The translations under genes and the position numbers were made by a program. Shown here in pieces: positions 6,491 to 30,031 of a stretch of 64,000 bases of DNA; positions within the stretch are counted from its first letter, which is position 1; each line of letters starts with the position of its first letter. The DNA comes from a virus, in the IMG/VR virus record IMGVR_UViG_3300010005_000040. The stretch is one strand, 5' to 3'. Under the pieces are notes generated by a model. It saw nothing but the letters and a program-made list of their open reading frames with translations, did no database searches and was not told where the DNA came from.

Positions 6491-6493
6491 TGC

Positions 6494-12464: not shown

Positions 12465-12784
12465 ACAAGGAACGCATTCTGAAACTGGCCGATGTCATAG
12501 AAAATGCGCCGCATCAGCCCATACCTCCTCGTGGTACGCCCAAGCGCAAATTAGCGGGCTTCAATATGTCAAATTGGCATTGCGGGACGGTCGGTTGCAT
12601 CGCGGGGTGGGCAAGGGAGATTTTTGGCGAGGGGCCATATGATGCTCTAGATCTAGAGTTCTGGCAGGCGGATGCACTTTATGTCCCGCATGGGCCCACG
12701 CATGACATTCAGCCCCACCACGCCGCTGCTGTCCTTCGCCACCTAGCCGAAACCGGCAAAGTCGACTGGACGGTCCAGCCATGA
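12461..12784 (+). CDS. Hypothetical early protein
   Basis: MNKERILKLADVIE...CGTVGCIAGWA...AAAVLRHLAETGKVDW, a recurrent phage family pattern. Confidence 0.7.
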   Translation: MNKERILKLADVIENAPHQPIPPRGTPKRKLAGFNMSNWHCGTVGCIAGWAREIFGEGPYDALDLEFWQADALYVPHGPTHDIQPHHAAAVLRHLAETGKVDWTVQP

Positions 12785-13038
12785 ACTCGGCTCAACCCCT
12801 GCTCGATAGCAAGACAGCCGTGCGCCTGCCGTATCTCAGCCAGGCTCAGGCGGAATTCAGTCTCAGCCAGACCTTGCGCCGGCTTGCTCATGCTGCCCGC
12901 CGCGAAGCGCAAGCTTGGGAAGCGCAGGGCAAATACCAGAAATTCGCGGACGCGATGCTTGAGGGGCGCCGCTTATGGCGTGACGCCAAATGGCATCTGG
13001 AGCGCGCAAAAATGAACCACGAAAGGGCAATTCGATGA
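12781..13038 (+). CDS. Hypothetical early protein
   Basis: Coupled ORF. Confidence 0.55.
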   Translation: MNSAQPLLDSKTAVRLPYLSQAQAEFSLSQTLRRLAHAARREAQAWEAQGKYQKFADAMLEGRRLWRDAKWHLERAKMNHERAIR

Positions 13039-13754: not shown

Positions 13755-13759
13755 CCATT

Positions 13760-14329
13760 ATGGATGGGATTTGCTCTATCCAAGAATGTGGAACGCCGGC
13801 AGTAGCGCGCGGATGGTGTGAGAACCATTACCGAAGATGGCTACGCAACGGTGATCCACTGAGCGGCAGGGTATCAAACGGCGAGCCAGAGCGGTTTTTG
13901 CGCGAAACGGTGTTCGTTTATGACGGCGATGAATGCCTGATTTGGCCGTTTGCGAAAAGTCATGGGCGACCGCGTATCCGTCGCGAATTTGTAACTCGTG
14001 TTGTTTGTGAAGAGACAAACGGACCGCCGCCTACGCCAGATCATGAAGCCGCGCATTCTTGCGGAAACGGGCATCTGGCCTGCGTGACCAAACGCCATTT
14101 GGCTTGGAAGACACATGCCGAAAATATGGCGGACATGATCCAGCACGGCACCAGCACGCGGGGCGAAAAGCACCCAAACGCAAGGCTGACTGATGGTGAC
14201 GTGTCGGAGATACGGCGGCTGTCCTCCCACAATACGCAGCGCGAGATCGCGAAGCTTTACGGCATTTCACAATCTCACGTCGCCAACATCCAATCCGGCA
14301 CAAAACGAAATTCAGGAGACCAGAAATGA
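13760..14329 (+). CDS. HNH (Zn-binding-loop) homing endonuclease with C-terminal HTH
   Basis: CSIQEC..GWCENHY, ECLIWP, EAAHSCGNGHLAC...HLAWKTHAENMADM, RGEKHPNARLT..DV.EIR. Confidence 0.88.
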   Translation: MDGICSIQECGTPAVARGWCENHYRRWLRNGDPLSGRVSNGEPERFLRETVFVYDGDECLIWPFAKSHGRPRIRREFVTRVVCEETNGPPPTPDHEAAHSCGNGHLACVTKRHLAWKTHAENMADMIQHGTSTRGEKHPNARLTDGDVSEIRRLSSHNTQREIAKLYGISQSHVANIQSGTKRNSGDQK

Positions 14330-14628
14330 GCACTTATCAAAAAAAGGACATGTCCGGCACGCTCTTTCGGAACGAACGGAAAGAGACCGACAGCCATCCT
14401 GATTGGGCCGGCTACATCATCATAAACGGCGTGGAACATTGGTTAAACGGCTGGGAAAAGCACGGCGCCAAAGGGCTGTTTTTCTCCCTCGCAGCCAAGC
14501 CCAAAGAGCAGCGCGCGCAAGAGATCAAGCAGGCCGCGAAACCTCGCTACGGCGATGACGACCAAGACAGGTCAGTTGGCGGCGGCTTCCATGACAAGGA
14601 AATCCCGTTCGCCCCCGAGTTTCGATGA
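14326..14628 (+). CDS. SSB-like protein (OB-fold, acidic D.EIPF tail)
   Basis: GTLFRNERKETDSHPDWAG...WLNGW...FSLA; C-terminal DKEIPF; downstream of the recombinase. Confidence 0.65.
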   Translation: MSTYQKKDMSGTLFRNERKETDSHPDWAGYIIINGVEHWLNGWEKHGAKGLFFSLAAKPKEQRAQEIKQAAKPRYGDDDQDRSVGGGFHDKEIPFAPEFR

Positions 14629-14678
14629 CAGCAAAGGGCGGTGGGGCTTCGGCTCTACCGCCCGGAAAGGCCAGGGAC

Positions 14679-14999
14679 ATGACCATTTCCAATATGCCTA
14701 TCTCAGAACAATTCCGCCTTGTCGCGAAGGAATGGGTTGAGGCCGATAGCGCAGCTCGCCTGCTAGAGGAAACCAAGACCGCAGTCCTTGCTCAACGCAT
14801 GAAGGCACTTGGCGATATGCCAGCGGCTCACTCGGAGCGTGAGGTAAAAGCCTCCCGTGAATGGGCGGATTTCATCGAAAAGATGACGCGGGCGCGGACC
14901 CAAGCCAACCTCAAAAAGGTCCAGCTTGAATACATCCGCATGCAGTTTTCCGAAGCCCAATCTTTCGAGGCCACGAAACGCGCGGAGATGAAGCTATGA
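14679..14999 (+). CDS. Conserved recombination-module protein
   Basis: AKEWVEADSAARLLEETKTAVLAQ; helical. Confidence 0.6.
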   Translation: MTISNMPISEQFRLVAKEWVEADSAARLLEETKTAVLAQRMKALGDMPAAHSEREVKASREWADFIEKMTRARTQANLKKVQLEYIRMQFSEAQSFEATKRAEMKL

Positions 15000-15178
15000 C
15001 CGCCCGCTTTTACTGGCGCCGTGCGCACCCAGTCCGCCTCCCCGACAAGGTAAACACCAAGCCTCATCAAGAACTTTGGGAAGCCTACCGCACAGAAAAG
15101 CTCAACAAGGAAATAGAACAGCTCATTGCGGCTGAACTGGACCGGGATTTTCGGAGAGCGTCAAATGGCGCGCCGTGA
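14996..15178 (+). CDS. Hypothetical protein
   Basis: Coupled 60-aa ORF. Confidence 0.45.
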   Translation: MTARFYWRRAHPVRLPDKVNTKPHQELWEAYRTEKLNKEIEQLIAAELDRDFRRASNGAP

Positions 15179-15521
15179 GTTCACACGCAAGATCCGTCAA
15201 GCTGCAATCGCCAGAGCAGCCGGCAAATGTGAGAAGTGCACCGCCGCGCTCAAGCCTGGCGAGGCAGAGGTAGACCATATCCTGCCCGACATCTTGGGCG
15301 GCGAGCCGGTGCTGGCCAATGCTCGCGTGCTCTGCCGGCCATGCCATGCGGAAAAGACGGCAGACGATATCCGCCGCACCCGCAAGGCTGACAGGCAGCG
15401 CGACAAGGCCAGCGGCGCCGTGAGGCCGAAGCAGTCGATCCCCAGCCCTCCCAAGCAACCAAAGCCAGCGCCGAAGGCAATGCCGCCGCGCCGCAATCTG
15501 TTCATGAGGAGCCAAGCATAA
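15165..15521 (+). CDS. HNH endonuclease
   Basis: CEKC...EVDHILP..LGGE..LANARVLCRPCHAEKT. Confidence 0.88.
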   Translation: MARREFTRKIRQAAIARAAGKCEKCTAALKPGEAEVDHILPDILGGEPVLANARVLCRPCHAEKTADDIRRTRKADRQRDKASGAVRPKQSIPSPPKQPKPAPKAMPPRRNLFMRSQA

Positions 15522-16276
15522 TGTTTTTGAACCGGTATCAAGACAGGCCGTCGACGCTCAAGGTTGACAACGAGATTACCTACAACGACCGCAAGGGCGC
15601 CGTCCATTCGCTCAATGAGTACAACATCACTGTCTGGCAGGACGGTGAGGTCACGGCGCAACGGAAATACTACGCCAAGAGCGACCCGAGCAGCACGTTC
15701 CCGAACATGACGGTCAGCGACGGGTCCATAAATCTGCCGATCGATGACCTCGTTGAGTTCCTCTTGGCTCGCATTACCCCGGCTGAACTTGCCGAGGGCC
15801 TCATGGAGAACGACGAGGCGCGCGAGGCCCTGGTCTACAAGATGTCAGAGCGGTTCTCGTCGCCAACGTTTCTCGACGGAGACCGTCGCACCTTCCTTAC
15901 GAAGGTTCAGCAGCAAGTCTACGCGGAAGCCATTGGCCGTGCCGTCGAGCGGCTGAACAAGGCCGAAGAAGCCCACCGTTCTCGTGATGACTACTACCGT
16001 TGGAAGGCTGTTGAAACCGGCTACTACCGGTCGATCTACGAGTCATCGATGGCGCTTCTCGATGGCGACGAAGGCAGGAAGAAGGCCTTCACCGAGCGGT
16101 ATCTGCACCCAGATAAGCTCGACGCACATATCAAGGACGGTCGAGATCCTGTCGTCAAGGAAAGCGTCGGGCCGCAGTGGCATGAGAGCCGCGATTACTG
16201 GCGCAAGCGCCTTGAGGAGTATTTCCCGGAGCCAACGTCCGATCACGCTTCTCGTCTTCGCAGGAGCGCATCATGA
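15521..16276 (+). CDS. Hypothetical protein (251 aa)
   Basis: Long coupled ORF, no family recognised. Confidence 0.7.
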   Translation: MFLNRYQDRPSTLKVDNEITYNDRKGAVHSLNEYNITVWQDGEVTAQRKYYAKSDPSSTFPNMTVSDGSINLPIDDLVEFLLARITPAELAEGLMENDEAREALVYKMSERFSSPTFLDGDRRTFLTKVQQQVYAEAIGRAVERLNKAEEAHRSRDDYYRWKAVETGYYRSIYESSMALLDGDEGRKKAFTERYLHPDKLDAHIKDGRDPVVKESVGPQWHESRDYWRKRLEEYFPEPTSDHASRLRRSAS

Positions 16277-16485
16277 GTGGAGAGACGAAGCTCACGCCGA
16301 AGCAAGCTTACGATGAACGCAGGCGGCTCCGCAGGGAAAACGACCTCCGCCGCGAACAGCGCGCCGCTTCCCAGATGGATCACGAGGACGATGTTGACCA
16401 GCGTTTAACGCGCCTCCTCGCGGCCTTCGAACGCGTGGCCGATGTCCTCGAACTTTGGGCGGATCGGCAGGAGTCGAGCACATGA
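16273..16485 (+). CDS. Hypothetical protein
   Basis: AGGAG SD, coupled. Confidence 0.55.
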   Translation: MSGETKLTPKQAYDERRRLRRENDLRREQRAASQMDHEDDVDQRLTRLLAAFERVADVLELWADRQESST

Positions 16486-17252
16486 CCCCGGATATGCCAG
16501 CCATGGATGAGAAGGGACTGGATGCGTGCCCGTTTTGCGGTAGCGACGGCAAGCCGAGACTGTTCGACTTCGACGGCGAGCCATACGTCCCTGGCTACGA
16601 GGTGCGCTGTGACGCTTCCGGCTGGGACGGCATGGAAGAGCGAGGCTGCGGTGCAACATCTGGATGGGGCGAGACGCAGGCAGAAGCCATCGCCGCATGG
16701 AACCGTCGCGCTCTCGCGGCCACCGCTCGGGATGGAGACGGAGACACGGCCACTGAACAAGAGCTCCGCGATCTATTTAGCATGGAAGATGAAGACGGCC
16801 CCCTTGAAGATGTGGTTGCGACACACAGCGGGGAATGGCGGCGTGAAGGCGATATTTGGCGGTGGCACCAAGGCGAAGAACTCGCCGTAGTTCGCGTCTC
16901 GTCCGACTGCGCCTCCCTCAAGGCTGTGCCAGAAGTGGAGGTGGTGAAGGCGGACACCCAACTAGTAGATGCCCTTTGCGCTATGCTCCGTCTGTTTGAT
17001 GACAGGCATAACTTTGTCGAAGGGCCAACGCAGACCAAGGTAGCCATAAAGAATGCTCATAAAGCTCTGTGGCCTGATAGCAAAGTAACGGCGCCGAATC
17101 CATATGCCTATGAATATGGTAGGTCCAACGGAGACGGCACGTTCAGTGTTGTCATAGAGCGCGGCGAGCCAAACAGCCCCGTTTCTGATTGGCCGGTAAA
17201 GCCCCTCTTCGCCACCCCACAACCGGCACCAGACGCAGAGGTGAAGCCGTGA
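16482..17252 (+). CDS. Lar-like restriction-alleviation domain protein (mosaic C-terminus)
   Basis: LDACPFCGS...YEVRC...GCGA...TQAEAIAAWNRR. Confidence 0.75.
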   Translation: MTPDMPAMDEKGLDACPFCGSDGKPRLFDFDGEPYVPGYEVRCDASGWDGMEERGCGATSGWGETQAEAIAAWNRRALAATARDGDGDTATEQELRDLFSMEDEDGPLEDVVATHSGEWRREGDIWRWHQGEELAVVRVSSDCASLKAVPEVEVVKADTQLVDALCAMLRLFDDRHNFVEGPTQTKVAIKNAHKALWPDSKVTAPNPYAYEYGRSNGDGTFSVVIERGEPNSPVSDWPVKPLFATPQPAPDAEVKP

Positions 17253-17980
17253 GTGCCTACTATAATGAATTTGACCCGTACGCCGCTGCTTGGCTGCGCA
17301 ATCTCATTTCCGCTGGCCTGATCGCGCCTGGCGATGTTGACGACAGGAGCATCACCGATGTCCGACCGGACGACATCACCGGATACACCCAATGCCATTT
17401 CTTTGCCGGCATCGGCGGATGGTCCTATGCAGCTAGACTTGCTGGATGGCCTGATGAGCAGCCCCTATGGACCGGGAGCTGCCCTTGCCAGCCGTTCTCC
17501 GTCGCGGGGAAGCAGCTTGGGTTCACGGACCATCGCGACCTCTGGCCGGAATTCTGGCGCCTTATCGCCGAGCGAAAGCCTCCAGTTGTCTTTGGAGAGC
17601 AGGTTGCGAGCGCGCCTAAATGGATTGCGCGGTGTAAGCGTGACCTGGAAGCCATGGGCTACGCCGTGGGGGGCAATCCTATCAAGGCCAGAGCCGTTGG
17701 AGCCCATCACAGGCGCCCACGCTTCTGGTTTGTTGCCGACGCCGAGCGGTACGAGCAACCATGGCAAGAACCATGTGGCCGGCCGTCTAGACGAGTGGGG
17801 CGGCTCATCGAATCCTTTCCGTGGGACGAGCCTTGGGAAAGTGCATTGTCCCGCTTTCGAGCTATGGGTGATGGGGTTCCCCGAAGCGTGGGCGCAACAG
17901 ATGCCGCTCGCAATGCCATCGTCCCGCAAGTCGCGGCGGAAGTGATCGGCGCCTACATGGATGCGAGGGCCGCAGCATGA
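17249..17980 (+). CDS. DNA cytosine-5 methyltransferase, main (alpha) polypeptide
   Basis: Motif I FFAGIGG, motif IV GSCPCQPFS, motif VI GEQV, motif VIII AHHRRPRFWFVA, motif X NAIVPQVA; no motif IX in frame; GTGA-coupled start. Confidence 0.9.
   Translation: MSAYYNEFDPYAAAWLRNLISAGLIAPGDVDDRSITDVRPDDITGYTQCHFFAGIGGWSYAARLAGWPDEQPLWTGSCPCQPFSVAGKQLGFTDHRDLWPEFWRLIAERKPPVVFGEQVASAPKWIARCKRDLEAMGYAVGGNPIKARAVGAHHRRPRFWFVADAERYEQPWQEPCGRPSRRVGRLIESFPWDEPWESALSRFRAMGDGVPRSVGATDAARNAIVPQVAAEVIGAYMDARAAA
17358..17945 (+). CDS. Nested +1-frame ORF: probable methyltransferase beta polypeptide (motif IX)
   Basis: AGGAG 8 nt before ATG 17358; 195-aa open frame inside the alpha gene; LLPTP and motif-IX-like CPAFELWVMGFPEAW. 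Confidence 0.72.
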   Translation: MSDRTTSPDTPNAISLPASADGPMQLDLLDGLMSSPYGPGAALASRSPSRGSSLGSRTIATSGRNSGALSPSESLQLSLESRLRARLNGLRGVSVTWKPWATPWGAILSRPEPLEPITGAHASGLLPTPSGTSNHGKNHVAGRLDEWGGSSNPFRGTSLGKVHCPAFELWVMGFPEAWAQQMPLAMPSSRKSRRK

Positions 17981-18771
17981 CCTCAATCTCTCTCCCCTCC
18001 GGTAAGATATCCGAGGCGATGGTCGAGGCGCTTCGGAACATTTCGCGCATTGCCAAGGACCGCACCGAAAATGCCCGGCATCGCGTCGACATCATCATTG
18101 AAATCGCTGACGGCGCTCTCGGAGCACACCTCGCCGCTCTATCGGTACCCGCTCCAGGCACTGGAGGGGCGGACCACTTGATGCTTGAGCGGGCAAGGGA
18201 CTGGATCGCGGACAACATTCGCGAAGGCGACATGGAGGGCTGCACGGTCCTTGGCTACTTGGCACAGTTCCTACACGGATCGGCCACCCCGCCAGCGGGA
18301 GATATGGGGGCGGTGAAGGTCAAGCCACATCTCTGGAAGGAAGACGTTGACACGCTTATCCGCGAACTCGCCGAGATGGATGACCGAACTTCGCCAGAAG
18401 ACCGCCCCGAACACCTGCTCGTCACGACCAACGAGTTGCGGCAATTCGCCAGCGATGTGAGCGCGCTTTCCTCTACCCCTGTGAGGGAGATGGACGGCTG
18501 GCAGCCAATCGAGACGGCGCCAAAGGACCAGGAAGTGCTCATTGCATACTGGCGTTGGCGCAACAGCATGTCGCCCGGCACAATTGTGGTGCAGTCCGCG
18601 AGCCTTACTGAACACCACGGCAAAGGCATTTGGTCGTGGGTTGTCAGCGACAACAAACACGGTCCGTTTCCTATTCGCGGATGGTGTGATGGCGACCTGC
18701 TCGGCTGGCAACCGCTGCCAGAGTTCGAAGAAGGCCGCGCCGCTCTCGCTACTGTGGGAGGTCGGACATGA
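17977..18771 (+). CDS. Mosaic early protein with C-terminal DUF551-like domain
   Basis: GWQPIETAPKDQEVL...LLGWQPLP. Confidence 0.7.
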   Translation: MTSISLPSGKISEAMVEALRNISRIAKDRTENARHRVDIIIEIADGALGAHLAALSVPAPGTGGADHLMLERARDWIADNIREGDMEGCTVLGYLAQFLHGSATPPAGDMGAVKVKPHLWKEDVDTLIRELAEMDDRTSPEDRPEHLLVTTNELRQFASDVSALSSTPVREMDGWQPIETAPKDQEVLIAYWRWRNSMSPGTIVVQSASLTEHHGKGIWSWVVSDNKHGPFPIRGWCDGDLLGWQPLPEFEEGRAALATVGGRT

Positions 18772-18983
18772 GCGACGACCAATTCCCGCAGACCTGGGTA
18801 ACAAATGAAATACCGCCGCGCATGCTCAAGGTTAAGGGCGTGGCGTTGATGGACCGCGATTGCCTAGTGGCTGAGATCATAGGTGAAAAACATGGGCCGC
18901 TTTGGGTCGTAGAACACAGCGGTTATGTCATCGGTATCGGTGCCGAGGTCTACGCCATTCCATGTGGGGAGCCGCGCCCATGA
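18768..18983 (+). CDS. Hypothetical protein
   Basis: GGAGG SD, coupled. Confidence 0.55.
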   Translation: MSDDQFPQTWVTNEIPPRMLKVKGVALMDRDCLVAEIIGEKHGPLWVVEHSGYVIGIGAEVYAIPCGEPRP

Positions 18984-19417: not shown

Positions 19418-19827
19418 GAGCCGACCTTCAGGACACCGACCCGATCACCCTGGTTGAGGCGAGCAAGCTCGTTCTGCGGGGGATCATCTCTGTAAGCGCC
19501 TTGCGCGCGGAAATCAGGCGTGGAAACCTGAGCGTCGAGCGGATTGGCAAGAACCTGTACACGACGCCCGCCGCGATACGCGAGATGAGGGACAAATGCC
19601 GCGTCATGCCGAACCACCAAGACTATACCTCAGAAAAGACCGAGGTCAAAGCGTCTGGATCATCCGCGACGGCGGAAAAGACAAGCGAACTGGCTGCACT
19701 GAAGGCGAGCGTTCACGCGCTGAAAACCGGTTCGCTGAGTACCTTGCGGAGAAGCACACCGCCCGACCAGCAAAAGGCGGAAAGTCCGATACCGTTTCGA
19801 TCGCGGAAGTCCTCCGGGTCTACGTGA
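19414..19827 (+). CDS. Excisionase-like winged-HTH protein overlapping int
   Basis: ITLVEAS...SALRAEIRRGNL.VERIGKNLYTTPAAIREM; GGAGG SD. Confidence 0.7.
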   Translation: MRADLQDTDPITLVEASKLVLRGIISVSALRAEIRRGNLSVERIGKNLYTTPAAIREMRDKCRVMPNHQDYTSEKTEVKASGSSATAEKTSELAALKASVHALKTGSLSTLRRSTPPDQQKAESPIPFRSRKSSGST

Positions 19828-20639
19828 TGGAACATGCTCCGACCACGGCCAAGCCGAAGCTCATCGCCGAGCATGTCGAGGGGCTGACGGACTTTTGGGC
19901 GCCGAAGAATGTTTCCAGCATCAAGGGTTCGAGCTGTCGGGCTTTTGCCGCGACCAAGACGGCATCCATGGCGAGGCGCGAACTAGAGACGCTGAGAGCG
20001 GCAGTTAACTACTTCCACAGGGAATACGGGCTGGACCCGGTGCCGGCCTTCACGATGCCACAGAAGCACCGCGCGCGCGACAGGTGGCTGACCCGCGATG
20101 AGGCCGCCGCGCTGCTCTGGAGCGCCCGCAGGACGCCTCACCTCGCACGGTTCATCCTCATCGGCCTTTACACAGGAACGCGCTCAGGCGCCATCCTTGG
20201 CCTATCCTGGCTACCGTCGATCAAGACCGGCTGGCTGGATCTGGAACAGGGCATCATGCACCGCAGCGGCAATGGCCAGCGCGAGACGAAGAAGCGCCAG
20301 CCGCCGGTTGCTTTGCCTGATAGGCTCATGGCCCATATGCGACGGTGGAAACGGCTGGATAAGAGCATCCGCCACGTCATCAATTGGAACGGATCGTCGG
20401 TGATTTCGGTGAAGAAATCCTTCCGTTCCGCGCGGATAAATGCTAAGTTAGATCAACAGGTTATCCCGCATACGTTGCGCCATACGGCGGCGACTTGGCT
20501 CATGCAATCAGGCATCGAGCCATGGCAGGCGGCAGGGTTCCTGGGGATGACGGTCGAGATGCTGGAGCGGACTTACGGGCATCATTCGCCCAAGTTCCAG
20601 AAGGCAGCGTCGACGGCTATAGCGGCAAGGAGAGCGTGA
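19596..20639 (+). CDS. int: Tyrosine integrase
   Basis: YTGTRSGAI (Arg I), PHTLRHTAATW (H-x-x-R), AAGFLG, YGHH (catalytic Tyr). Confidence 0.95.
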   Translation: MPRHAEPPRLYLRKDRGQSVWIIRDGGKDKRTGCTEGERSRAENRFAEYLAEKHTARPAKGGKSDTVSIAEVLRVYVMEHAPTTAKPKLIAEHVEGLTDFWAPKNVSSIKGSSCRAFAATKTASMARRELETLRAAVNYFHREYGLDPVPAFTMPQKHRARDRWLTRDEAAALLWSARRTPHLARFILIGLYTGTRSGAILGLSWLPSIKTGWLDLEQGIMHRSGNGQRETKKRQPPVALPDRLMAHMRRWKRLDKSIRHVINWNGSSVISVKKSFRSARINAKLDQQVIPHTLRHTAATWLMQSGIEPWQAAGFLGMTVEMLERTYGHHSPKFQKAASTAIAARRA

Positions 20640-20839: not shown

Positions 20840-21102
20840 GCGCGCACACTAATTTTCGGCAAGGTCAGCCCGTCTTTGTGCAGTTAAAGACCGGCGAAAA
20901 ATTTGTAGATCGATTCCACCAGCACCGATCAACCCATATTGTCTTGAGGAACCATGGGCGCATCGACATCGCCGACATCCGGGCGGTTAGCATTAATAGA
21001 TCGACGCGCACAGAAACCGCACTGAAACAACCGATAGTGACTAAAACCAACGTGAACGAACAAGGGACAGAAGGCGACTTGGGAACGAACAAACTGGGCT
21101 GA
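20836..21102 (+). CDS. Hypothetical protein ending at the attP core
   Basis: ATGA-coupled; GQPVFVQLKTGEKFVDRF SH3/KOW-like start. Confidence 0.55.
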   Translation: MSAHTNFRQGQPVFVQLKTGEKFVDRFHQHRSTHIVLRNHGRIDIADIRAVSINRSTRTETALKQPIVTKTNVNEQGTEGDLGTNKLG

Positions 21103-21183
21103 CTCCTCGTTCGGGACGAGGGGGTCGCAGGTTCAAATCCTGCCACTCCGACCAGCCGGCGCACAGATACGCGCACAGAAACC
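21006..21183 (+). repeat. Putative integrase arm-type sites GCGCACAGA(A/T)AC at 21006, 21159, 21171
   Basis: Direct repeats flanking the att core; two are in tandem. Confidence 0.65.
21105..21154 (+). other. attP core = 3' half of tRNA-Pro(CGG)
   Basis: CCTCG-TTCGGGA-CGAGG anticodon arm, GGTTCAAATCC T-arm, acceptor 3' strand ending ACCA; no 5' half upstream. Confidence 0.92.
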
Positions 21184-22228: not shown

Positions 22229-22447
22229 ATGATGATGGGCAGACTGCATCTTTCGCGGAATCAGAACAGCATGATCGAGATGATGGCTCGCGAGGTCGTA
22301 AACTGCGCTGGCGGGAGCTATGGCACTGTCTACGCGGCGATGCGCGATGCCTATTTGTGCGGAAGCCTTCGCATCACCTACCCCGAGTTGCAGGCTCTGC
22401 AAGCAGCCGAACGGGCAAAGTTCAAGGACGTGGAGCCGGCGTTCTAA
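22229..22447 (+). CDS. Hypothetical protein
   Basis: AGGAG SD; last gene of the rightward operon. Confidence 0.55.
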   Translation: MMMGRLHLSRNQNSMIEMMAREVVNCAGGSYGTVYAAMRDAYLCGSLRITYPELQALQAAERAKFKDVEPAF

Positions 22448-22518
22448 GCGTGCTCATGGAGGGGATATAGCGCAGAGTCCGAAATGCGAAAAGGTTCTGA
22501 CATAGCAGCGAGGCATAC

Positions 22519-22543
22519 TTCAGAAATGTATGGGGTTTCTGAA
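22519..22543. terminator. Inverted repeat at convergence of early-right and late operons
   Basis: TTCAGAAA-N9-TTTCTGAA. Confidence 0.4.
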
Positions 22544-22571
22544 ATAGTGCAGGGCTAGGGAGTGGGGAAGA

Positions 22572-22736
22572 TCAGCGCTTCACTTCGAAACGGAGTGAAC
22601 TCGTAGCTTGCATTATGAACTCGATCAGATCGACATAGCTTACATCGCCGACCTTGTAGCCATTGAACATGAGTTCCCGCTTGGGGGTTTTGCCGTCTGG
22701 TTCCAGGGTGACGCGGATGGCGATTTTCTGGCTCAT
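22572..22736 (-). CDS. 54-aa hypothetical protein
   Basis: ATGA-coupled to the phosphoesterase stop (MSQKIAIRVTLEPDGK...). Confidence 0.5.
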   Translation of the reverse strand: MSQKIAIRVTLEPDGKTPKRELMFNGYKVGDVSYVDLIEFIMQATSSLRFEVKR

Positions 22737-23770
22737 GAATAGCGTTCCGCGAGTTCGAGCATCGAAACAAACTGGTCACTCTCAACCCGGCCGCCCCGCA
22801 GTCTCAACAGGTGGACGCCGTATGTGTATCCAGTCGTTGCCCCGTCCGTATATTTCGGCGTGTAGCCATACGGCATGGCAGAGCCGAGGTTGGTGATCGT
22901 GATGGCATTGTTGATGCCGATCTTCGGCACCGTGACATTGTTGTTTCGGTGGGTATGGCCAAAGACGATGGAATGCGTGGCCTGGTTGCCGATGGTGTTT
23001 TCGGGATAGCGCCCGCCGATCGGCTTCTGCATGATGCTCATAGGGACGTGGGTAAAGCCGACGCCTTCGAAAAATAGCCAGTGACGGTATGGGGTCGTGC
23101 GCCAGCGATATCGGGCAAAGAACTGCTGGACCTGTAGCGTTAGGGTCCCGGCGAGGTTAGGCGCCAGTTCCTCCAGTCGGTCAACTCTGTTCTCGTGATT
23201 CCCAAAAACAACATCATGCGGGATTTCCCCTGCCCCGATCTCGGAATGGTAGATGTCGAATGCTTCCTGCCCGGCTTCGATCTCGTCAATGAAGGCCGGT
23301 CGCTTCATCTGGCTAGCAGAGCCGGCGGCGCTGTGCATCTCGCAGGATTCGAAGTCGAAGCAGTCGCCGATCTGGAGAACGTTGTCAGGGCGTGTTTCCG
23401 CCACATAGCGGCCTATCCAGCGCATGTGTTCGAAGTCCATGCCCGGCTTTAGGTGAAGATCCCCAATCGCCACCATGCGCCTTACAGGGAGGTCTTTGGT
23501 GACGGAGAGATTGTAGGCCCGAACGCGGACACGAGGTTTGACCTCCTCAATGCCCTCTATGTCGGGGGTGTAATCGGTCTGGGCTGTTTCCGCGTCTTCA
23601 GCCTTGATCCGCTCGAGATATCGATAGACTGTCTGCCTGTGGAAGCCAGTGGCGGTCGAGAGTCCGGAGCGGTTTATGGACCCATCCGCCCTGGTGAACT
23701 CTGGAAGGTATTGCCGGATGCGCAATAGGGCATCTGGCGAAATGAATGTAACCCCGTCTGGGTTCACCAT
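22733..23770 (-). CDS. Calcineurin-like metallophosphoesterase with N-terminal HTH
   Basis: GDLH, GDCFD, GNHE, THVP, GHTHR motifs; N-terminal INRSGLSTATGFHRQTVYRYL. Confidence 0.88.
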   Translation of the reverse strand: MVNPDGVTFISPDALLRIRQYLPEFTRADGSINRSGLSTATGFHRQTVYRYLERIKAEDAETAQTDYTPDIEGIEEVKPRVRVRAYNLSVTKDLPVRRMVAIGDLHLKPGMDFEHMRWIGRYVAETRPDNVLQIGDCFDFESCEMHSAAGSASQMKRPAFIDEIEAGQEAFDIYHSEIGAGEIPHDVVFGNHENRVDRLEELAPNLAGTLTLQVQQFFARYRWRTTPYRHWLFFEGVGFTHVPMSIMQKPIGGRYPENTIGNQATHSIVFGHTHRNNNVTVPKIGINNAITITNLGSAMPYGYTPKYTDGATTGYTYGVHLLRLRGGRVESDQFVSMLELAERYS

Positions 23771-23803
23771 CTCGGGCTCCGATCTGTTGGAGTATTCGGG
23801 GGA

Positions 23804-24244
23804 TTATGGGAGAGAAATTGCTGGCGTCTCTGGCGTTTTGGCTTCAGAGCCAGTGACGGGCGGCGGGCCGTCATATTCAGCCCCGCCATCGCCATCCAAC
23901 TTGACGTGCGGACCTTGGCCTGTGCCTTGGGCGCCGTCCTGCGCAGCCTGCATCTTGTTCGCGGCTTCGTTTGTATACGGTAGGAGATAGTAGACCGGCG
24001 GGTTGCCGCCCTCTTTCAGAAGCACCCATATTCCCACGTTAGGAACGATGTCTGCCCCGACGAGGGTATAATCACCAGCTGGGGGCGAGGTGAACCTCGG
24101 GGTACCTGTGGGGAGGTAGACGGCGAGAGCGGCGAGGCATACGGCAATTGGCAGAGAAAGGCCGATAACTCGCCGTTTGGCGAACCATGCGAAGGTGCAG
24201 AGTAAGACCGCGAGGCCAAGCCAAGTTGAGGCGAGCAGGGTCAT
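23804..24244 (-). CDS. Two-TM membrane protein with soluble C-terminal domain
   Basis: ATGA-coupled start 24244; two hydrophobic segments then beta-rich domain. Confidence 0.65.
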   Translation of the reverse strand: MTLLASTWLGLAVLLCTFAWFAKRRVIGLSLPIAVCLAALAVYLPTGTPRFTSPPAGDYTLVGADIVPNVGIWVLLKEGGNPPVYYLLPYTNEAANKMQAAQDGAQGTGQGPHVKLDGDGGAEYDGPPPVTGSEAKTPETPAISLP

Positions 24245-24330
24245 TCGTCCCCCAGATACCAAAGGCCCACGGCTGAGAAGATCAGGCATGCAGCGAAGAA
24301 GGTGAGGAAGGCGATGGCGGCCCACATCAT
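24241..24330 (-). CDS. 29-aa single-TM protein MMWAAIAFLTFFAACLIFSAVGLWYLGDE
   Basis: ATGA overlaps at both ends. Confidence 0.6.
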   Translation of the reverse strand: MMWAAIAFLTFFAACLIFSAVGLWYLGDE

Positions 24331-24866
24331 GACGCGGACCTCAGCGGCACATAGACTAGATTGGTCGAGCCGGGAACGATGTCCCCCTTACCGCCCAGCG
24401 TGAAGCGGATTACAGTTCGTTCCTGGCGAGGCTTGAGCGCCATATCCGTGGACACCAACAGGCGCCCATTCAGCGAAACTTCAACATGAACGTTGACAGA
24501 TTCCGTCAGGCTGTATCCATGAATGTTGACGGCGTATTCGCCGGCCGGAGTTGCGCGGGCAAAAGCACTCTCACAATTCACCGGGCTCGCGTCGTTGACG
24601 GTGCCCATGTCATCGCGCAGCAGGGACCATATGAGGCCCGCCTTGCGACTGTAGCCAACTGACTTATCACCGGGCGCGCCTAGCCAGAGATCGACGTCAG
24701 TAGGCCCCGGAGGCCAGCACATAAGCACGGCGATGTTGCCTGGAGGCGGCAAGGCATCGGGATTGTCTTTGGCTACCGGGTTGATCTGCGCAAGGACTAG
24801 AACGACAAGCGCTGTCAGGCCCAGAAGGAAGTTCGACAGGATGTCGCGGATCAGGGTGAAGATCAC
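24327..24866 (-). CDS. MotB/ExbD-like Asp-TM anchor fused to a YfaP/DUF2135-like domain
   Basis: GTGA-coupled; N-terminal TM beginning RD-ILSNFLLGL; W...TDVDLW...DD...E...GEYAVNIHGY beta-sandwich pattern. Confidence 0.6.
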   Translation of the reverse strand: MIFTLIRDILSNFLLGLTALVVLVLAQINPVAKDNPDALPPPGNIAVLMCWPPGPTDVDLWLGAPGDKSVGYSRKAGLIWSLLRDDMGTVNDASPVNCESAFARATPAGEYAVNIHGYSLTESVNVHVEVSLNGRLLVSTDMALKPRQERTVIRFTLGGKGDIVPGSTNLVYVPLRSAS

Positions 24867-25264
24867 TTCCCTACCACCCATGCATTGATGCTTATCCAGA
24901 TCGACGCCACGGCACCTACAAGGCTGCTGCAAAAAGCAACTCCCATGCCGGCTAGCAGATTGGCTGCTACCTTCTGAACGCCCTCTGCGGAGCCTAGAGC
25001 GCCCGTGTCGATGCCGTGCATGGCAAGCACGAAACCGATGAGGTTACCTATTAGACCGAGGGTTACGAGCCAAACCTCCACGCGCTCGATGTGGCCCGTT
25101 TTGCCGAGGAAGATGCCGGCAAGGCTAGCAACGAACAACGCGGTAATCAGGTAACTCAGATGGGAGATATCATGGCTGAAAACGAACTGGACGTATCCCA
25201 GGCAGGCCGCCCAGATAACGAAGCATAGGCCGGCGAAATTCAGGATGAAGAGACGCAGGGTCAT
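24863..25264 (-). CDS. Minimal MotA/TolQ/ExbB-like channel protein
   Basis: 133 aa, four hydrophobic segments; LGLIGNLIGF and GMGVAFCSSLVG match the last two TMs of the family. Confidence 0.65.
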   Translation of the reverse strand: MTLRLFILNFAGLCFVIWAACLGYVQFVFSHDISHLSYLITALFVASLAGIFLGKTGHIERVEVWLVTLGLIGNLIGFVLAMHGIDTGALGSAEGVQKVAANLLAGMGVAFCSSLVGAVASIWISINAWVVGK

Positions 25265-25800
25265 TGTGCCGCCACCGTCACAGGACATTTGGGAAGCAGT
25301 AGCTCAGCGGGGATGACGAGCATGGTGTTCGTCTCATCGCCATCGGTGGGGGATGGCACACGGACACTCTTCAGGTATTTGCGCAGGGGCGCCGGCAGGC
25401 TTTCAAGCTGCATCCGCCATATCTCGCGCGCCGACCTCACGGCCGATTTGGAACGGCGGATTGTCTTGCCATCGGGAAGCATCGCGAAAGGCTTGTGAAA
25501 GCCGAAGATTGCGCCCTCGTCCGCGCATGCCCTGATGCCGGTGAATTCGGTGAACAGGACGAATGTGCAAGCGCTTGCACACATGCCGTGATAGTGGATC
25601 TCGGCCCCGGCGAAGCTCAGTGCCTGATATTTCCGATAGTACTCGGAGACGTTGCCGCCCGGGTCATCGGTGATGTGAATGACTGGCCGCTCCGGTGCGG
25701 CATGGGCCTGGATGGTAAGGGCAACGCTCATAAACATGGCCAGAGCCAACGCTGCCAACAGAATAGAAAAAGCAACCCAGAAGCGACTGTTCTCGCCCAT
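25261..25800 (-). CDS. Secreted ClpP/crotonase-fold (S49-like) protein
   Basis: Signal peptide ending AHA; DDPGG, GMCASAC (nucleophile Ser position), FGFHKP (His position). Confidence 0.6.
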   Translation of the reverse strand: MGENSRFWVAFSILLAALALAMFMSVALTIQAHAAPERPVIHITDDPGGNVSEYYRKYQALSFAGAEIHYHGMCASACTFVLFTEFTGIRACADEGAIFGFHKPFAMLPDGKTIRRSKSAVRSAREIWRMQLESLPAPLRKYLKSVRVPSPTDGDETNTMLVIPAELLLPKCPVTVAAQ

Positions 25801-25830
25801 GGCCGTTTCCTTTCGAGGGAGGAAGATTGA

Positions 25831-26004
25831 TTAGTCGCGGTCGCGATCGGTCAGTTTTGTGATGATCTGGACCAGCAGCCATGCGCAGCCGAGGATCGGG
25901 AGCAGGAGCGCGGCGTTCTGCGAAATGTCGGCCAGAGACGGCATCCACCAAGGGGAAACAGCGGCGCCGGCAGCAATCACGTTTGTCACCTTGTCTATGG
26001 TCAC
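25831..26004 (-). CDS. Small membrane protein (holin/antiholin-like)
   Basis: GTGA-coupled to o-spanin; 57 aa, hydrophobic, charged C-tail TDRDRD. Confidence 0.55.
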   Translation of the reverse strand: MTIDKVTNVIAAGAAVSPWWMPSLADISQNAALLLPILGCAWLLVQIITKLTDRDRD

Positions 26005-26261
26005 TTGCCTGTCTCCAGTACGGAGACGGCTTTCGAAAGAGCGCCGTGACGGCGGGCACAGTTGGTCAGGGCTCGCCGATCCGAGGCCCACAGTCTGGCC
26101 ACGTCAGCCTGGGTGAGATCCCTGTCCGGAATGTTGACAATGCCAGCGCATGCCTGCCGAAGCGATTGCGGGATTTTGGCTGTGACCGGGGGCAGAACCG
26201 AGTGGCGATCGGTGGCACATCCAGAGAGGGCAAGGACCGCGCAAAGGAGGATAGCTTTCAT
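26001..26261 (-). CDS. Rz1: o-spanin lipoprotein
   Basis: Lipobox LSGC after a hydrophobic leader; Pro-rich mature part; follows i-spanin. Confidence 0.75.
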   Translation of the reverse strand: MKAILLCAVLALSGCATDRHSVLPPVTAKIPQSLRQACAGIVNIPDRDLTQADVARLWASDRRALTNCARRHGALSKAVSVLETGK

Positions 26262-26596
26262 CGCCCTGCTCCGTTTATGGCGCGGGCAAGCGATTTCGGC
26301 AGGGCTGGCTTTTGGTCAGCACCCTCCGACTTTATGGCTTCCTCAAGCGCGGTTTGCGTCTCTGCCAGTTGGCCTTGAATGGCGAGGTAATCCGCCTCTA
26401 TCTGATCGATCTGGCGCTGGTCGGAAGCGGCTTTGGCGAGCTGTTTGGCCTGGTCTTCCTCGCGCTGTGCGACCCATGCGGCACGCTCTACGGAGGCACC
26501 CTCTGCCCTGCCCTTGTAGAACTCGCGAGCACCATATCCGAAGAAGAGCGCAACGCAGATCGCGGCGGCGGCCAGATAGGCCAGGATTGTGTTCAT
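26258..26596 (-). CDS. Rz: i-spanin
   Basis: N-terminal TM plus coiled coil; ATGA-coupled start 26596. Confidence 0.72.
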   Translation of the reverse strand: MNTILAYLAAAAICVALFFGYGAREFYKGRAEGASVERAAWVAQREEDQAKQLAKAASDQRQIDQIEADYLAIQGQLAETQTALEEAIKSEGADQKPALPKSLARAINGAGR

Positions 26597-26682
26597 GCGA
26601 GCCACCACACAAGGAAAATGGCCACAACCAGCAGTGAACCGGCTCCGATGATGCGCAGTGCGTAATCAAGGACTTTGACCAT
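26593..26682 (-). CDS. 29-aa single-TM protein MVKVLDYALRIIGAGSLLVVAIFLVWWLA
   Basis: TGATG overlap with the endolysin stop, ATGA overlap with Rz. Confidence 0.55.
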   Translation of the reverse strand: MVKVLDYALRIIGAGSLLVVAIFLVWWLA

Positions 26683-27143
26683 CACAGCCCCCGCAAGCAC
26701 AGTTCGCGCTCTTTGGCGCGGCGCTTGGTCAGACCGGGAAAAGTGATGCCAACAGCCTTGTTCCAGGCCATGAGCGCATCGCAGCCCTCGCGAGTGCGGT
26801 TCTGATTGATCAGCCGGACAACGCTGGATTTGCAGGCCGCGCCTACCCCGACATTGTAGGCAAAGCTGGTGAGGGCAACGAACCGGTCATCCGGTAGGGG
26901 AACCTTGACGCAAGCCTCTATGCCGTTGGCGTATTTCTCAAGGCTCCTGACAAGCATGGCCTTGCATTCAGCGATCGAGTGGTAGTCGCCCTTGTGGACG
27001 TTTTCCGTCTCGCCATAACACACGGTCCAAGGAGGTCCGCCAGTCGCCGGATCTGGGTAGGCATTCTGACGAAGGCCCTCGAACCCGCCGATAAGCGAGA
27101 CAGCCAATGCGGCGGCTACGCCACCCTTTTTAAGACGGCTCAT
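26682..27143 (-). CDS. GH24 lysozyme endolysin, possibly SAR type
   Basis: FEG...YPD...WTVCYGET catalytic pattern, ALTSFAYNVG, GLTKRRAKERELC; Gly/Ala-rich hydrophobic N-terminus. Confidence 0.92.
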   Translation of the reverse strand: MSRLKKGGVAAALAVSLIGGFEGLRQNAYPDPATGGPPWTVCYGETENVHKGDYHSIAECKAMLVRSLEKYANGIEACVKVPLPDDRFVALTSFAYNVGVGAACKSSVVRLINQNRTREGCDALMAWNKAVGITFPGLTKRRAKERELCLRGL

Positions 27144-27363
27144 TGGAACCTCCAGAGATCGGTTTTTGCGCGATGAAGCGGGCATAGATCGCGCCCGCTG
27201 AAACGAAGCCGGACAACGCGGCGAACAGACCGCGTGGGATCGGAAACAGCCCGTCGAGATAGGGCCAAGCCGCTTCAAGGCCGGTCAGGACCACGGCAAG
27301 CACCATGAGCCGAACGCTCCACGCATGGCGAAGTACGGCCCGCCAGTTCGAGACGAGTTGCAT
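27130..27363 (-). CDS. Holin
   Basis: 77 aa, two TMs, immediately upstream of the endolysin; LVSNWRAVLRHAWSVR pattern. Confidence 0.8.
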   Translation of the reverse strand: MQLVSNWRAVLRHAWSVRLMVLAVVLTGLEAAWPYLDGLFPIPRGLFAALSGFVSAGAIYARFIAQKPISGGSNEPS

Positions 27364-27391
27364 GTCAAGGCTCTTTGGCTATGGTCGGCTG

Positions 27392-27583
27392 ATGGGATAC
27401 ACAGTCGAAATGATGCGCGACGGCAAAGCCATCAGGCATGCCGAGGTTCAGGCTCCTAGTGATGCTGAAGCCGCGAAGACCTTTGGACCGGTGAAGGATG
27501 GGCTAGGCAGAGAGCCTGTATCTGGTGAATGGATACGGGTGACGCAGGCTGGTGTCAGGACGAGCTGGTTTCAGCCAGGATGA
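27392..27583 (+). CDS. Opposite-strand hypothetical protein (moron-like)
   Basis: 63-aa ORF YTVEMMRDG...WIRVT between holin and tailspike; start uncertain. Confidence 0.45.
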   Translation: MGYTVEMMRDGKAIRHAEVQAPSDAEAAKTFGPVKDGLGREPVSGEWIRVTQAGVRTSWFQPG

Positions 27584-27592
27584 TTGATGTTC

Positions 27593-27617
27593 GGCTCTTG
27601 GGTTGAGCCAGTTTTTT
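27593..27617 (+). terminator. Possible intrinsic terminator
   Basis: GGCTC-N7-GAGCC followed by AGTTTTTT. Confidence 0.4.
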
Positions 27618-27632: not shown

Positions 27633-27938
27633 ATGCGAAATATTGCTCAGACACAGACCGTCAAAATCTACAAGCTGCTGCGGGTCGAAGGTCAGCCCTG
27701 GGTGGCTTCAGTTGATATTCACGGCAAATTCATCAAGGCCGAGGGCAAGACGCAGGCCGAAGCGCTGATCGCGCTGGCTCAGATCTGGCCGGAACCGACC
27801 GAACAGGCTCCTGAACCAGAACAGCAGAGCTATATAAGCAGTGATTTTGCCATGCTGGCTGCGGTGCCCCCGCAGAAGCGGGCCGCCCTTGAGCGGATGT
27901 ACGCTACTTCTCACATGGCTATTCCCAAAGAGGATTAG
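27633..27938 (+). CDS. Opposite-strand hypothetical protein (moron-like)
   Basis: AGGA SD; 101 aa; convergent 4-bp overlap with the tailspike stop. Confidence 0.55.
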   Translation: MRNIAQTQTVKIYKLLRVEGQPWVASVDIHGKFIKAEGKTQAEALIALAQIWPEPTEQAPEPEQQSYISSDFAMLAAVPPQKRAALERMYATSHMAIPKED

Positions 27939-30031
27939 GCCACCTCGTATTCGAGAAAGCCAACCAACCTCTGCGTATTCGCCACAGGGAATGGTGTTAT
28001 ATTTGCCGTTGTTCCGGTCGCTATGACCCGGATGACGCCCGATGCGTTTGTGGCCGTATTGATCCAAGAACCTACGGCCGGCGAAACTGCCGCCGCACCG
28101 GTAGGAAGCGTGGCTGTCAGGCCTACGGTTCCTGTTCCGATGTTTGTGATCGTGATGTCGAATGACACCCTAACGGTCTTCCCCTTGCGTTGATAGCGAC
28201 AAGCAAGCGTTCCAACGGTGGTCAGAGTACCAGTAATAGCGGTGACTGTCGGGGTGAAGCTGAGCCACTCCTCACTCTCGAAGATGCCGGCACCCGTAAC
28301 GATAGGCGCTGCCGTGGAGTCTTTTGTCAGGACTCCGACGTTTAGTCGATTACCTGTAGTGACATTGAAGGCCGGAACCGTCCCCGTAGCATTTCCGTCC
28401 CACCGGGATATCTTCGTCCGATCAACCTTAATCTCACCGCCTGTCCCGTCCATGTAAACAAGCTCGGCCATGTTCAAGTCAAGATCGAGATGGCCGATCG
28501 AAACGCGGCTGTTGGTCCCACTGTCGCGTAGGAGATAACTGTTGGCGGCCCAGGTAAGTCCGGATTGACCGTATATTTTGTCAAAAACCAGCTCGGGAGA
28601 TGCCCCAGATTCGATCTGTAGCGTTGTAGCGGCGCTGTCCCCGCCCACGCTATCGAAATAGCCTCTCAAGCATGATCCACCGGGAAGAGACGCGGGGAAA
28701 TTGACGCCCGCCGCCCCCAAACTGAATGCCAGGTTTCTAAGATATCCGATGGAGAATATGCGCCCGACCTTTGGATTATCGGCGCGGTAGAAGCGGAAAG
28801 CCGTCGCAGCCGCCCTCTGGTACGCCCGCACATTGCTATCGTTCGACCAATACGGCCAAAATCCGATCTCATCCATCCATATGACATCGTAGCAGTTGCG
28901 AAGCTCAATGCCCGTAGTCATAGGCTGGCCGCCGATGTGACGGAGGTGAACTCGACCGCAGCCGGCGCCAGTTCCGCCCACGCTGTCGTCGCCAATCAGT
29001 TGAATGCCCTTGGTCCCGTTCAGGATCGTGATGTCTTCAACGACAACATCTGCCGACCCTACGATCTTAATATCGAAGTCGTGCGCGGTTGGCGCCCAGC
29101 CCGCCCCCGGTGCCGGCTGCGTCCGGTAAGTGGTAAGGCCGCGCATTTCTGCACCGAAAGCAGACGACGCGAGAAGACCGACGCCGGTATGCCCGAAGTG
29201 CAGAACGGTCTTTTTTTGGCTGGCCATCGCGAGCCCGCCGTAGATAGAGCCCATCGCGCCCTCGCCCTGGACCTTCGCCTGAGCGGGGATATTGACCGTG
29301 CTGCCCAGCGCCATGGTACCGGCTGGGATCCACAAGGTGTCGCCTGTCCCGGCAACTGCCGTTAGGGCGGAGGAGAGAAGCGACGACATGTCATTGGTAT
29401 CGGTCATGTCCAGACCGTTCCAGTCGCGCAGATCGGCGCGATCGGATGCTTTGGCGTTCCATGTCCTAATGGCAGGGCTTCCGCTCAACGGCTGGGAAAA
29501 CCCGGCCCATGTCGGATCTGTGGAGGCGCCGTTCGTCTGGAGGTGATAGCCAGAAGTCGAAGCCGCCAACCTGGTGTTGGTAGTTGCGTTGCGAAAAATA
29601 AGGTCGCCACGCGTCGTGGTCGGAGCAAGAGAGTCGAAGCCAGCCGCAGCGTTGGCGATAGTGAGGAGCGATCGCCCCGTCGAGGTCGTTGTCAGGGCCG
29701 CAATGGCTGTCAGATCAGCGTCCAGGGGCTGGTATGCAGCAGCAATACCGGCGGTGTTTAGATAGGCAGATGGATTAACAGCCGACCATGCCGCCAGATT
29801 GGCTGAATATGCCTGGATATCGGTGCCGATCACCAGGCCAAGGTTGGTGCGGGCGCCTGATGCCGTAGAAGCGCCTGTGCCACCATCAGCCACAACGACA
29901 TCAGTACCGCCTGGGATATAATATGCGGAAGTAGGAGCGGAGCGGCTATTGCCTCCCTGAACCACGTAGGTCAGTTCTGTTCCGGCGAGCGGAAGGGTGG
30001 CGGCCGTGAGCGCAGAGGTGGTTTTGCTCAT
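27935..30031 (-). CDS. Tailspike/tail fibre with pectate-lyase-like beta-helix (putative depolymerase)
   Basis: N-terminal VADGGTGASTASGARTNLGL and QPLDADLTAIAAL fibre motifs; D...L.SAL.A...TG.TLWIPAG beta-helix start. Confidence 0.8.
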   Translation of the reverse strand: MSKTTSALTAATLPLAGTELTYVVQGGNSRSAPTSAYYIPGGTDVVVADGGTGASTASGARTNLGLVIGTDIQAYSANLAAWSAVNPSAYLNTAGIAAAYQPLDADLTAIAALTTTSTGRSLLTIANAAAGFDSLAPTTTRGDLIFRNATTNTRLAASTSGYHLQTNGASTDPTWAGFSQPLSGSPAIRTWNAKASDRADLRDWNGLDMTDTNDMSSLLSSALTAVAGTGDTLWIPAGTMALGSTVNIPAQAKVQGEGAMGSIYGGLAMASQKKTVLHFGHTGVGLLASSAFGAEMRGLTTYRTQPAPGAGWAPTAHDFDIKIVGSADVVVEDITILNGTKGIQLIGDDSVGGTGAGCGRVHLRHIGGQPMTTGIELRNCYDVIWMDEIGFWPYWSNDSNVRAYQRAAATAFRFYRADNPKVGRIFSIGYLRNLAFSLGAAGVNFPASLPGGSCLRGYFDSVGGDSAATTLQIESGASPELVFDKIYGQSGLTWAANSYLLRDSGTNSRVSIGHLDLDLNMAELVYMDGTGGEIKVDRTKISRWDGNATGTVPAFNVTTGNRLNVGVLTKDSTAAPIVTGAGIFESEEWLSFTPTVTAITGTLTTVGTLACRYQRKGKTVRVSFDITITNIGTGTVGLTATLPTGAAAVSPAVGSWINTATNASGVIRVIATGTTANITPFPVANTQRLVGFLEYEVA

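Follow-up and report, generated by a model that had tools for sequence, protein, structure and literature searches.

A conserved three-gene cassette encoding a MotA/TolQ/ExbB-family subunit beside the lysis genes of a temperate rhizobial phage

Introduction

What do two short, overlapping membrane-protein genes on the minus strand of a phage genome encode, and, if they form part of a proton-driven machine, why do phages carry such a machine of their own beside their lysis genes? The question was raised by positions 24327–25264 of the IMG/VR virus record IMGVR_UViG_3300010005_000040 (64,000 nucleotides, the whole of which is referred to here as the window), for which a first-pass annotation had proposed a minimal stator pair of the MotAB/ExbBD type. 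The two genes were (i) A (24863–25264, minus strand), encoding a 133-amino-acid (133-aa) four-helix subunit of the MotA/ExbB/TolQ type, and (ii) B (24327–24866, minus strand), encoding a 179-aa protein with one membrane helix and a predicted periplasmic sandwich; downstream of them was C (23804–24244, minus strand), encoding a 146-aa protein with a predicted helix hairpin and OB-like barrel. A and B were adjacent as annotated, but the unit contained C as a third conserved gene, and the conserved unit was thus three membrane proteins A–B–C, not a pair. The reading favored here, to which a probability of about 0.5 is given, is that A–B–C would be a proton-driven inner-membrane machine acting late on the envelope together with the lysis genes.

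Subunit A belongs to the proton channel family

The motifs quoted from the 133-aa minus-strand product in the first-pass annotation were exact: LGLIGNLIGF occupied residues 69–78 of A, and GMGVAFCSSLVG occupied residues 106–117. Four membrane helices were predicted, the loop between helices 2 and 3 had about nine residues, and the chain stopped two residues past the last helix; in this predicted topology A was essentially without a cytoplasmic domain, as had been claimed. Some relatives of A carried about 40 extra residues in the same loop.

A total of 107 homologues of A (33–92% identical) came from Mesorhizobium, Rhizobium, Sinorhizobium, and metagenomes, and many of them bore PF01618 or NCBI's MotA/TolQ/ExbB name. 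The comparison with PF01618, which had been proposed as a check, gave a divided answer: 20 of the 22 homologues scanned singly (38–84% identical to A) matched the profile, with a best E-value of 1.8e-7, but A on its own scored 11.4 bits (E-value 0.27), under the gathering cut-off of 22.9 set by Pfam. Further matches were found with (i) 19 ZorA profiles of PADLOC (best, ZorA1 at 7.5e-6), (ii) the NCBIfam profile ZorA_4 (6.5e-5), and (iii) solved structures in the PDB when the family profile of A was used as query (ZorA-like 8vvn_C, 1.8e-4; ZorA 8qyy, 1.5e-3; MotA 6ysl, 0.017), the last group always through the last two helices; a language-model look-up concurred on the family. Because its relatives matched PF01618 and A itself matched ZorA profiles, A is placed by sequence in the MotA/TolQ/ExbB proton channel family (PF01618) despite its own sub-threshold Pfam score, and the original call of a MotA/ExbB-type subunit is upheld.

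A residue census was made over 98 distinct A sequences. G73 and G77 were invariant (98/98), and A110 and G117 were each present in 91 of 98. The three positions singled out in the first-pass annotation were variable: position 74 held Thr in 54 sequences, Asn in 43, and Ser in one; position 113 held Ser in 52, Thr in 35, and Ala in 10; and position 114 held Thr in 80 and Ser in 17. The family thus retained small or polar residues throughout the channel-helix patterns G-x-x-G-T and A-x-x-[ST]-[ST]-x-x-G. The window copy had N74, S113, and S114, so that Asn and Ser-Ser had been read accurately at the usual Thr positions but were not unusual: given the Thr/Asn and Ser/Thr/Ala variation across the family, they are ordinary variants of polar channel positions.

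Subunit B carries a conserved membrane aspartate and a periplasmic sandwich

The GTG start of B was preceded by a purine-rich stretch, and translation from it gave an N-terminus matching those of ATG-starting homologues such as P0226; with this start, the membrane aspartate was residue 8. Asp8 lay at the beginning of the sole membrane helix, which was N-terminal, near its cytoplasmic end, in agreement with the first-pass annotation, and the conservation on which that annotation had staked its case held. It was found in 96 of 100 distinct B sequences from the fetched loci (the remaining four being alignment or start-codon gaps) and in 34 of 36 diverse representatives, and it was nearly invariant in 20 close homologues. 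The B family itself was large, with 193 homologues and 1650 representative clusters at E-values of at most 1e-3.

Pfam, NCBIfam, and PADLOC assigned no family to B or to 19 of its homologues, and neither an OmpA-type nor an ExbD-type domain was detected in it. The AlphaFold2 model of B (mean pLDDT, the predicted local distance difference test, 83) comprised a helix at residues 2–28, a short linker, and a nine-strand sandwich; the DUF2135-like sandwich spanned residues 43–160. A Foldseek search of the AlphaFold-DB clusters placed 11 clusters named DUF2135 among its top 30 (E-values 7.8e-12 to 1e-6), and the top one (234 aa, 7.8e-12) aligned from the membrane helix onward with a template-modeling (TM) score of 0.64 by query. 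Among solved structures, the best matches were TerD-like calcium-binding sandwiches (4e-4). The sequence profile of DUF2135 (PF09906) matched neither B nor any of the 19 homologues at E-values of at most 1. The earlier suggestion of a YfaP/DUF2135-like sandwich in place of an OmpA-type domain was therefore borne out for the fold but not for the sequence family.

Seven residues of B (D57, D59, D85, D86, G88, E99, and G109), five of them acidic, were invariant in 100 of 100 sequences. Such invariance suggests a binding site for a metal or another ligand, not a mere spacer, and by analogy the sandwich probably binds calcium.

The linker was short and Pro-rich, with conserved N-P and P-P-G, and no plug helix was recognisable in it. 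Unplugged MotB variants leak protons. The plugless linker, together with the position of the module next to the lysis genes, fits an explanation in which A and B would form a regulated proton leak that depolarizes the membrane and helps to trigger the holin or to release a membrane-tethered endolysin, with no mechanical output. A leak, however, would need neither a strictly conserved sandwich with seven invariant residues nor a conserved third subunit whose periplasmic part is folded; moreover, a holin-like gene is already part of the phage genome, and leaking chromosomal copies would be harmful. This explanation is regarded as very improbable.

A third gene completes the conserved unit

The B sequences were used to retrieve 63 viral and 14 genomic loci, and the neighboring open reading frames (ORFs) were clustered. 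In all 79 loci with room for it, A immediately preceded B in the same orientation, and 78 of 80 loci had C behind B; a further set of 25 genomic loci showed A next to B in 24 cases by profile search and in the 25th by BLAST, with C following in 22 of the 25. The clustering of neighboring ORFs gave no universal neighbor other than A, B, and C. The start–stop overlap of A and B in the window apparently recurred in many other loci, judging from ORF coordinates. The possibility of spurious ORFs was considered and rejected because conservation at the protein level spanned more than 100 loci. The trio was widespread in phages and chromosomes of Alphaproteobacteria.

C displayed a membrane-helix hairpin with a positively charged turn, a periplasmic b1-b2-b3-helix-b4-b5 barrel, and a conserved Pro/Lys/Glu tail, and it belonged to no Pfam family and no PHROG family. 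In structure comparison, the barrel resembled OB folds (eIF5A, SSB, and RuvB-like) with middling Z scores of 5.7–7.3; a Foldseek search of C against the PDB gave nothing below an E-value of 0.07, while a shape search found viral clusters of equal size. The N-terminal DUF4131 domain of ComEC matched seven of 22 C members over residues 6–95, with a best E-value of 0.0013 and 18.9 bits against a cut-off of 31.6, and it did not match the window copy. In an ESM Atlas viral cluster of 297 aa, all members of which carried Phage_lysozyme, a part superposed on helix 2 plus the barrel of C (TM score 0.58 over 103 residues); the presence of a C-like fold in such a cluster hints, at the level of predicted models, that the C-like domain works at the cell wall. 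The disordered tail of C (residues 127–146; window 23804–23866) held the motif Lys-x-x-Glu-x-Pro, with K136, E139, and P141 in at least 90% of sequences, and this motif may be a docking peptide.

In the common phage arrangement, the genes for holin, endolysin, Rz, and Rz1 came first; one small and one variable gene followed, then A–B–C, and beyond these an SbcD-like exonuclease gene (55 loci) and nucleotide-metabolism genes. In the majority of phage loci the module lay behind the lysis cassette, and the endolysins upstream of it were of two unrelated types, lysozyme and GH19; in two loci (L071 and L072), a GH19 endolysin gene lay directly after C instead. The variable slot upstream of A was occupied by unrelated exported proteins: (i) a trypsin-like peptidase in 43 loci (Trypsin_2, 5.4e-17; L015:2584–3282, EVB67_010 in L001, and p036 in L112), (ii) the 179-aa protein of the window type in 18 loci including the window, and (iii) a 116-aa protein in about seven. 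A periplasmic protease may be a functional partner of the trio. Several relatives had the cassette split by genes for Seg-like or HNH homing endonucleases at either the A–B or the B–C junction (L001, 4165–4923; L008, 4530–5309; L009, 4637–5221; L012, 4646–5341), with no part lost.

The matching phage records numbered six and represented five distinct phages, all from Rhizobium or Sinorhizobium. In Sinorhizobium meliloti phage 16-3, p036 encoded the trypsin-like protease, and p038, p040, and p042 corresponded to A (6.6e-39), B (1.4e-62), and C (1.6e-49), respectively; a GH19 endolysin gene preceded this cassette and a DNA repair exonuclease gene followed it. Compared to the window, phage 16-3 had the small genes p037, p039, and p041 interleaved with the trio, and its B was about 46% identical. 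The three genes were annotated merely as p038, p040, and p042, and one phage 16-3 paper did not discuss the cassette genes p036–p042. The presence of the cassette in this classical, genetically tractable phage makes the proposals below testable.

Relation to known ion-driven motors

The trio was compared with four groups of known systems. ExbB–ExbD–TonB and TolQ–TolR–TolA shared with A–B–C the gene order (channel subunit, one-helix Asp subunit, and third membrane-anchored periplasmic protein) and an output directed toward the periplasm. The G-x-x-G-[T/N] of A was in register with the G-x-x-G-T of TolQ/ExbB, and the Asp of B with Asp25 of ExbD, in local alignments that were not significant; when profiles of A and B were aligned by hhalign with single Escherichia coli TolQ, ExbB, TolR, and ExbD sequences, probabilities were 1–11%, and the register alone was informative. 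Unlike in the Ton and Tol systems, the periplasmic domain of B was a DUF2135-like sandwich and not an ExbD/TolR fold, and A was a four-helix protein with no cytoplasmic domain; unlike TonB and TolA, C had two helices and an OB-like barrel but no long linker. No motif of the Ser-His-Leu-Ser type was found, and helix 1 of C had no conserved His or Ser.

ZorA–ZorB of Zorya gave the best statistical match for A, and the Asp region of ZorB aligned with the N-terminus of B at an E-value of 1.3, which was not significant. The differences were considerable: A had 133 aa compared with 400–730 aa for ZorA and lacked the long tail, B lacked the peptidoglycan-binding domain of ZorB, PADLOC detected no ZorC/D genes, and the cassette was phage-encoded. 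The flagellar stators MotA–MotB and PomA–PomB resembled the trio in having a four-helix A subunit, an Asp in the helix of the B subunit, and adjacent, coupled genes (in addition to the weak 6ysl match given above), but the trio had no cytoplasmic torque-generating loop, plug helix, OmpA-type domain, or flagellar context. DUF2135 (PF09906; E. coli YfaP type) and PPC/TerD-like calcium-binding sandwiches shared the fold of B, and the D-x-D-L-W motif of B resembled DLDLY of a protease C-terminal domain (E-value 0.41).

By analogy, A–B–C would work like a three-part motor of the Ton/Tol type, with A statistically nearest to ZorA; judged by its sequences, it lacks the defining features of each named system and is a variant within the 5:2 motor superfamily. 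To our knowledge, the well-studied 5:2 motors all hand their work to a large partner: the cytoplasmic loop of MotA, the long tail of ZorA, or periplasmic TonB/TolA. As A comprises little beyond its membrane helices, of which there are four, its family could reveal how small a proton-conducting core can be and how output can be confined to the periplasm. A bolder formulation is that A–B–C would represent an unrecognised fourth branch of the Ton/Tol/Mot superfamily and the smallest known ion-driven motor, devoid of a cytoplasmic part and bearing a calcium-binding sandwich on its axle: an envelope machine of many Alphaproteobacteria, among them species with streamlined genomes, captured by temperate phages for envelope breakdown dependent on the proton-motive force or for the exclusion of rival phages; this formulation is tentative and rather doubtful.

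A literature search, whose coverage did not extend to subscription journals, found no paper describing the cassette, and superfamily surveys of MotAB, Ton, and Tol relatives made no mention of A–B–C (PMC12505986, PMC12204202). Nor was a paper found on DUF2135 with MotA-type partners, full-text searches for DUF2135 being empty; the trio gives this domain a first functional setting.

Proposed mechanism and role in the phage

In the favored reading, A and B would be the first two parts of a three-protein inner-membrane machine: A would be a stripped-down channel subunit of the MotA/ExbB/TolQ type, and B an axle-type subunit that would bind and give up protons at its membrane Asp8. On the model of the solved 5:2 family members MotAB, ExbBD, TolQR, and ZorAB (PMC9389320, PMC12204202; in part established knowledge), five copies of A probably surround two copies of B, proton flow at the A/B interface would drive a conformational or rotary cycle, and protonation of the Asp would drive the movement of A around B. 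A predicted complex of four copies of A with two copies of B residues 1–45 scored 0.01, a value that weighs neither for nor against the assembly, the four A copies differing from the proposed five. Because A has no cytoplasmic domain, all output must be periplasmic, and all extramembrane mass of the trio was predicted to be periplasmic. The output would be delivered through the acidic, probably calcium-binding sandwich of B and through C, the hairpin of which would dock on the A ring; the OB-like barrel of C and its conserved tail would reach a target in the periplasm or the cell wall. Synthesis of the trio would fall in the late phase, together with that of the lysis proteins, and as infection ends the trio would act on the envelope, either assisting its breakdown or setting the time of that breakdown.

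The late timing and the envelope as the site of action are taken from the translational chaining of the trio to the spanin genes (see below) and from the exported protease-like protein encoded upstream. A late envelope role is the first choice because of this chaining, because the link to endolysin genes survived changes of endolysin type and gene order, and because a C-like fold occurs fused to lysozyme. The role in the phage is nevertheless the weakest step of the reading.

Several observations weigh against the favored reading. At the level of the proteins, the Pfam score of A itself was below the cut-off (see above), and no ExbD, MotB, TonB, or TolA profile matched B or C. As for the position of the module, the end of a late operon is a classic site for accessory "moron" genes, and phage RHph_TM3_3_14B had an annotated attachment site between the lysis genes and the protease/module, which speaks against a lysis-specific role. 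As for the chromosomal versions, the trio in small genomes (1.1–2.5 Mb) lay beside CtaA/COX15 (two genomes), an NYN-domain gene, or an ABC transporter, with no recognisable phage genes, and seven loci (L097–L102 and L105) had an A–B–C–D arrangement in which the product of D, at about 263 aa, had a weak match of the DUF3108 type.

The attachment site that parts the module from the lysis genes is one of the points that would fit a different use of the same A–B–C machine, namely a prophage-expressed module for superinfection exclusion or defence: a tail-less, periplasm-only counterpart of Zorya that would sense other phages breaching the envelope or bringing in their DNA, or would block these steps, possibly with the upstream protease. 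The best profile matches of A were ZorA models; the module of the window stood last in the late region, within about 3.2 kb of the integrase gene, a typical place for lysogenic conversion; and C, through its hairpin and OB-like barrel, was weakly similar, below threshold, to the DUF4131 domain of ComEC, a DNA-uptake protein. A temperate lifestyle also recurred among the carriers: phages 16-3 and AP-16-3 are called temperate in the titles of papers, RHph_TM3_3_14B has its attachment site, and NV1.1.1 is listed among prophages. Yet the trio has no cytoplasmic tail of the ZorA type and no effector like ZorC/ZorD, PADLOC detected nothing in B, C, or the neighbors, the translational chaining to the spanins argues for late expression, and chromosomal copies lie beside housekeeping genes. 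Such a defence role is considered unlikely.

The chromosomal versions bear in turn on a cellular origin, in which A–B–C would be an envelope-maintenance module, a fourth Ton/Tol-like system of Alphaproteobacteria, adopted by phages as an auxiliary set that would preserve the envelope of the host, or its energised state, up to lysis. Relatives of B were found in 56 of 401 sampled alphaproteobacterial species genomes, and both the small-genome contexts and the conserved fourth gene of about 263 aa are in keeping with a cellular function; four other loci (L106–L109) had a different 339-aa gene after B, with no C found. On the other side, the chromosomal contexts inspected were few and may include degraded prophages, the phage copies are smaller and without the fourth gene, and the recurring protease partner is left unexplained by maintenance. 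This origin is judged quite improbable as an account of the phage cassette; if chromosomal versions prove to be housekeeping genes, they would add an envelope system to those known from a major class of bacteria.

Phage genome, lysis cassette, and coupled genes

The window was a single circular genome of 45,106 bases run past its end, with bases 1–18894 identical to bases 45107–64000. The source genome is that of a temperate tailed phage of rhizobia, and its temperate-phage gene set included an integrase gene at 19596–20639 on the plus strand. A 698-aa ORF at 27935–30031 was assigned as a putative tail fibre by position alone.

The lysis cassette (26001–27363, minus strand) was immediately upstream of the A–B–C module and included, all on the minus strand, (i) a holin-like gene of family F11 encoding two helices (27130–27363), (ii) an endolysin ORF (26682–27278; Phage_lysozyme, 3.3e-38), (iii) Rz (26258–26608; Rz-like spanin PHROGs), and (iv) Rz1 (26001–26261; LysC/Rz1, 1.6e-8). 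The endolysin ORF had a long N-terminal extension and, after an internal Met, a weakly hydrophobic Gly/Ala-rich stretch; these sequence features suggest a signal-anchor-release (SAR) endolysin that pairs with the holin-like protein.

From Rz to C, the minus-strand genes at 23804–26608 formed a chain of overlapping or near-touching genes with ATGA or GTGA junctions and one internal 30-base gap. Rz1 was followed by a gene for a 57-aa small membrane protein (25831–26004, minus strand; family f36, also 57 aa in locus L010), whose GTG overlapped the Rz1 stop and which bridged the lysis cassette and the module. Next came the gene for the 179-aa exported protein (25261–25800, minus strand; phrog_19619, with a weak ClpP-like match), whose stop overlapped the A start as ATGA; the GTG start of B overlapped the A stop as GTGA. 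Between B and C, a 29-aa one-helix peptide was encoded at 24241–24330 on the minus strand, with ATGA overlaps both with the B stop and with the C start; it was an optional part, its homologues occurring in 11 other loci, in every one between B (upstream) and C (downstream). A gene for a 345-aa metallophosphoesterase (22733–23770, minus strand; phrog_221, 4.9e-33) lay 33 bases downstream of C and belonged to the context of the module.

Within 22400–27600, no sigma-70-like promoter was found, the consensus being ill-suited to Alphaproteobacteria, and terminator-like sites were not more frequent than in shuffled sequence. Root metatranscriptome contigs from relatives about 90% identical spanned lysis genes and module alike; they do not resolve timing, and DNA carry-over is possible.

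A scan with ARAGORN gave no complete tRNA in the genome. Just beyond the integrase gene, the ORF translation at 20865–21176 held GFEPAT, a motif typical of the 3′ end of a tRNA; its nearness to the integrase gene suggests, from the sequence, that the attachment site overlaps a tRNA fragment.

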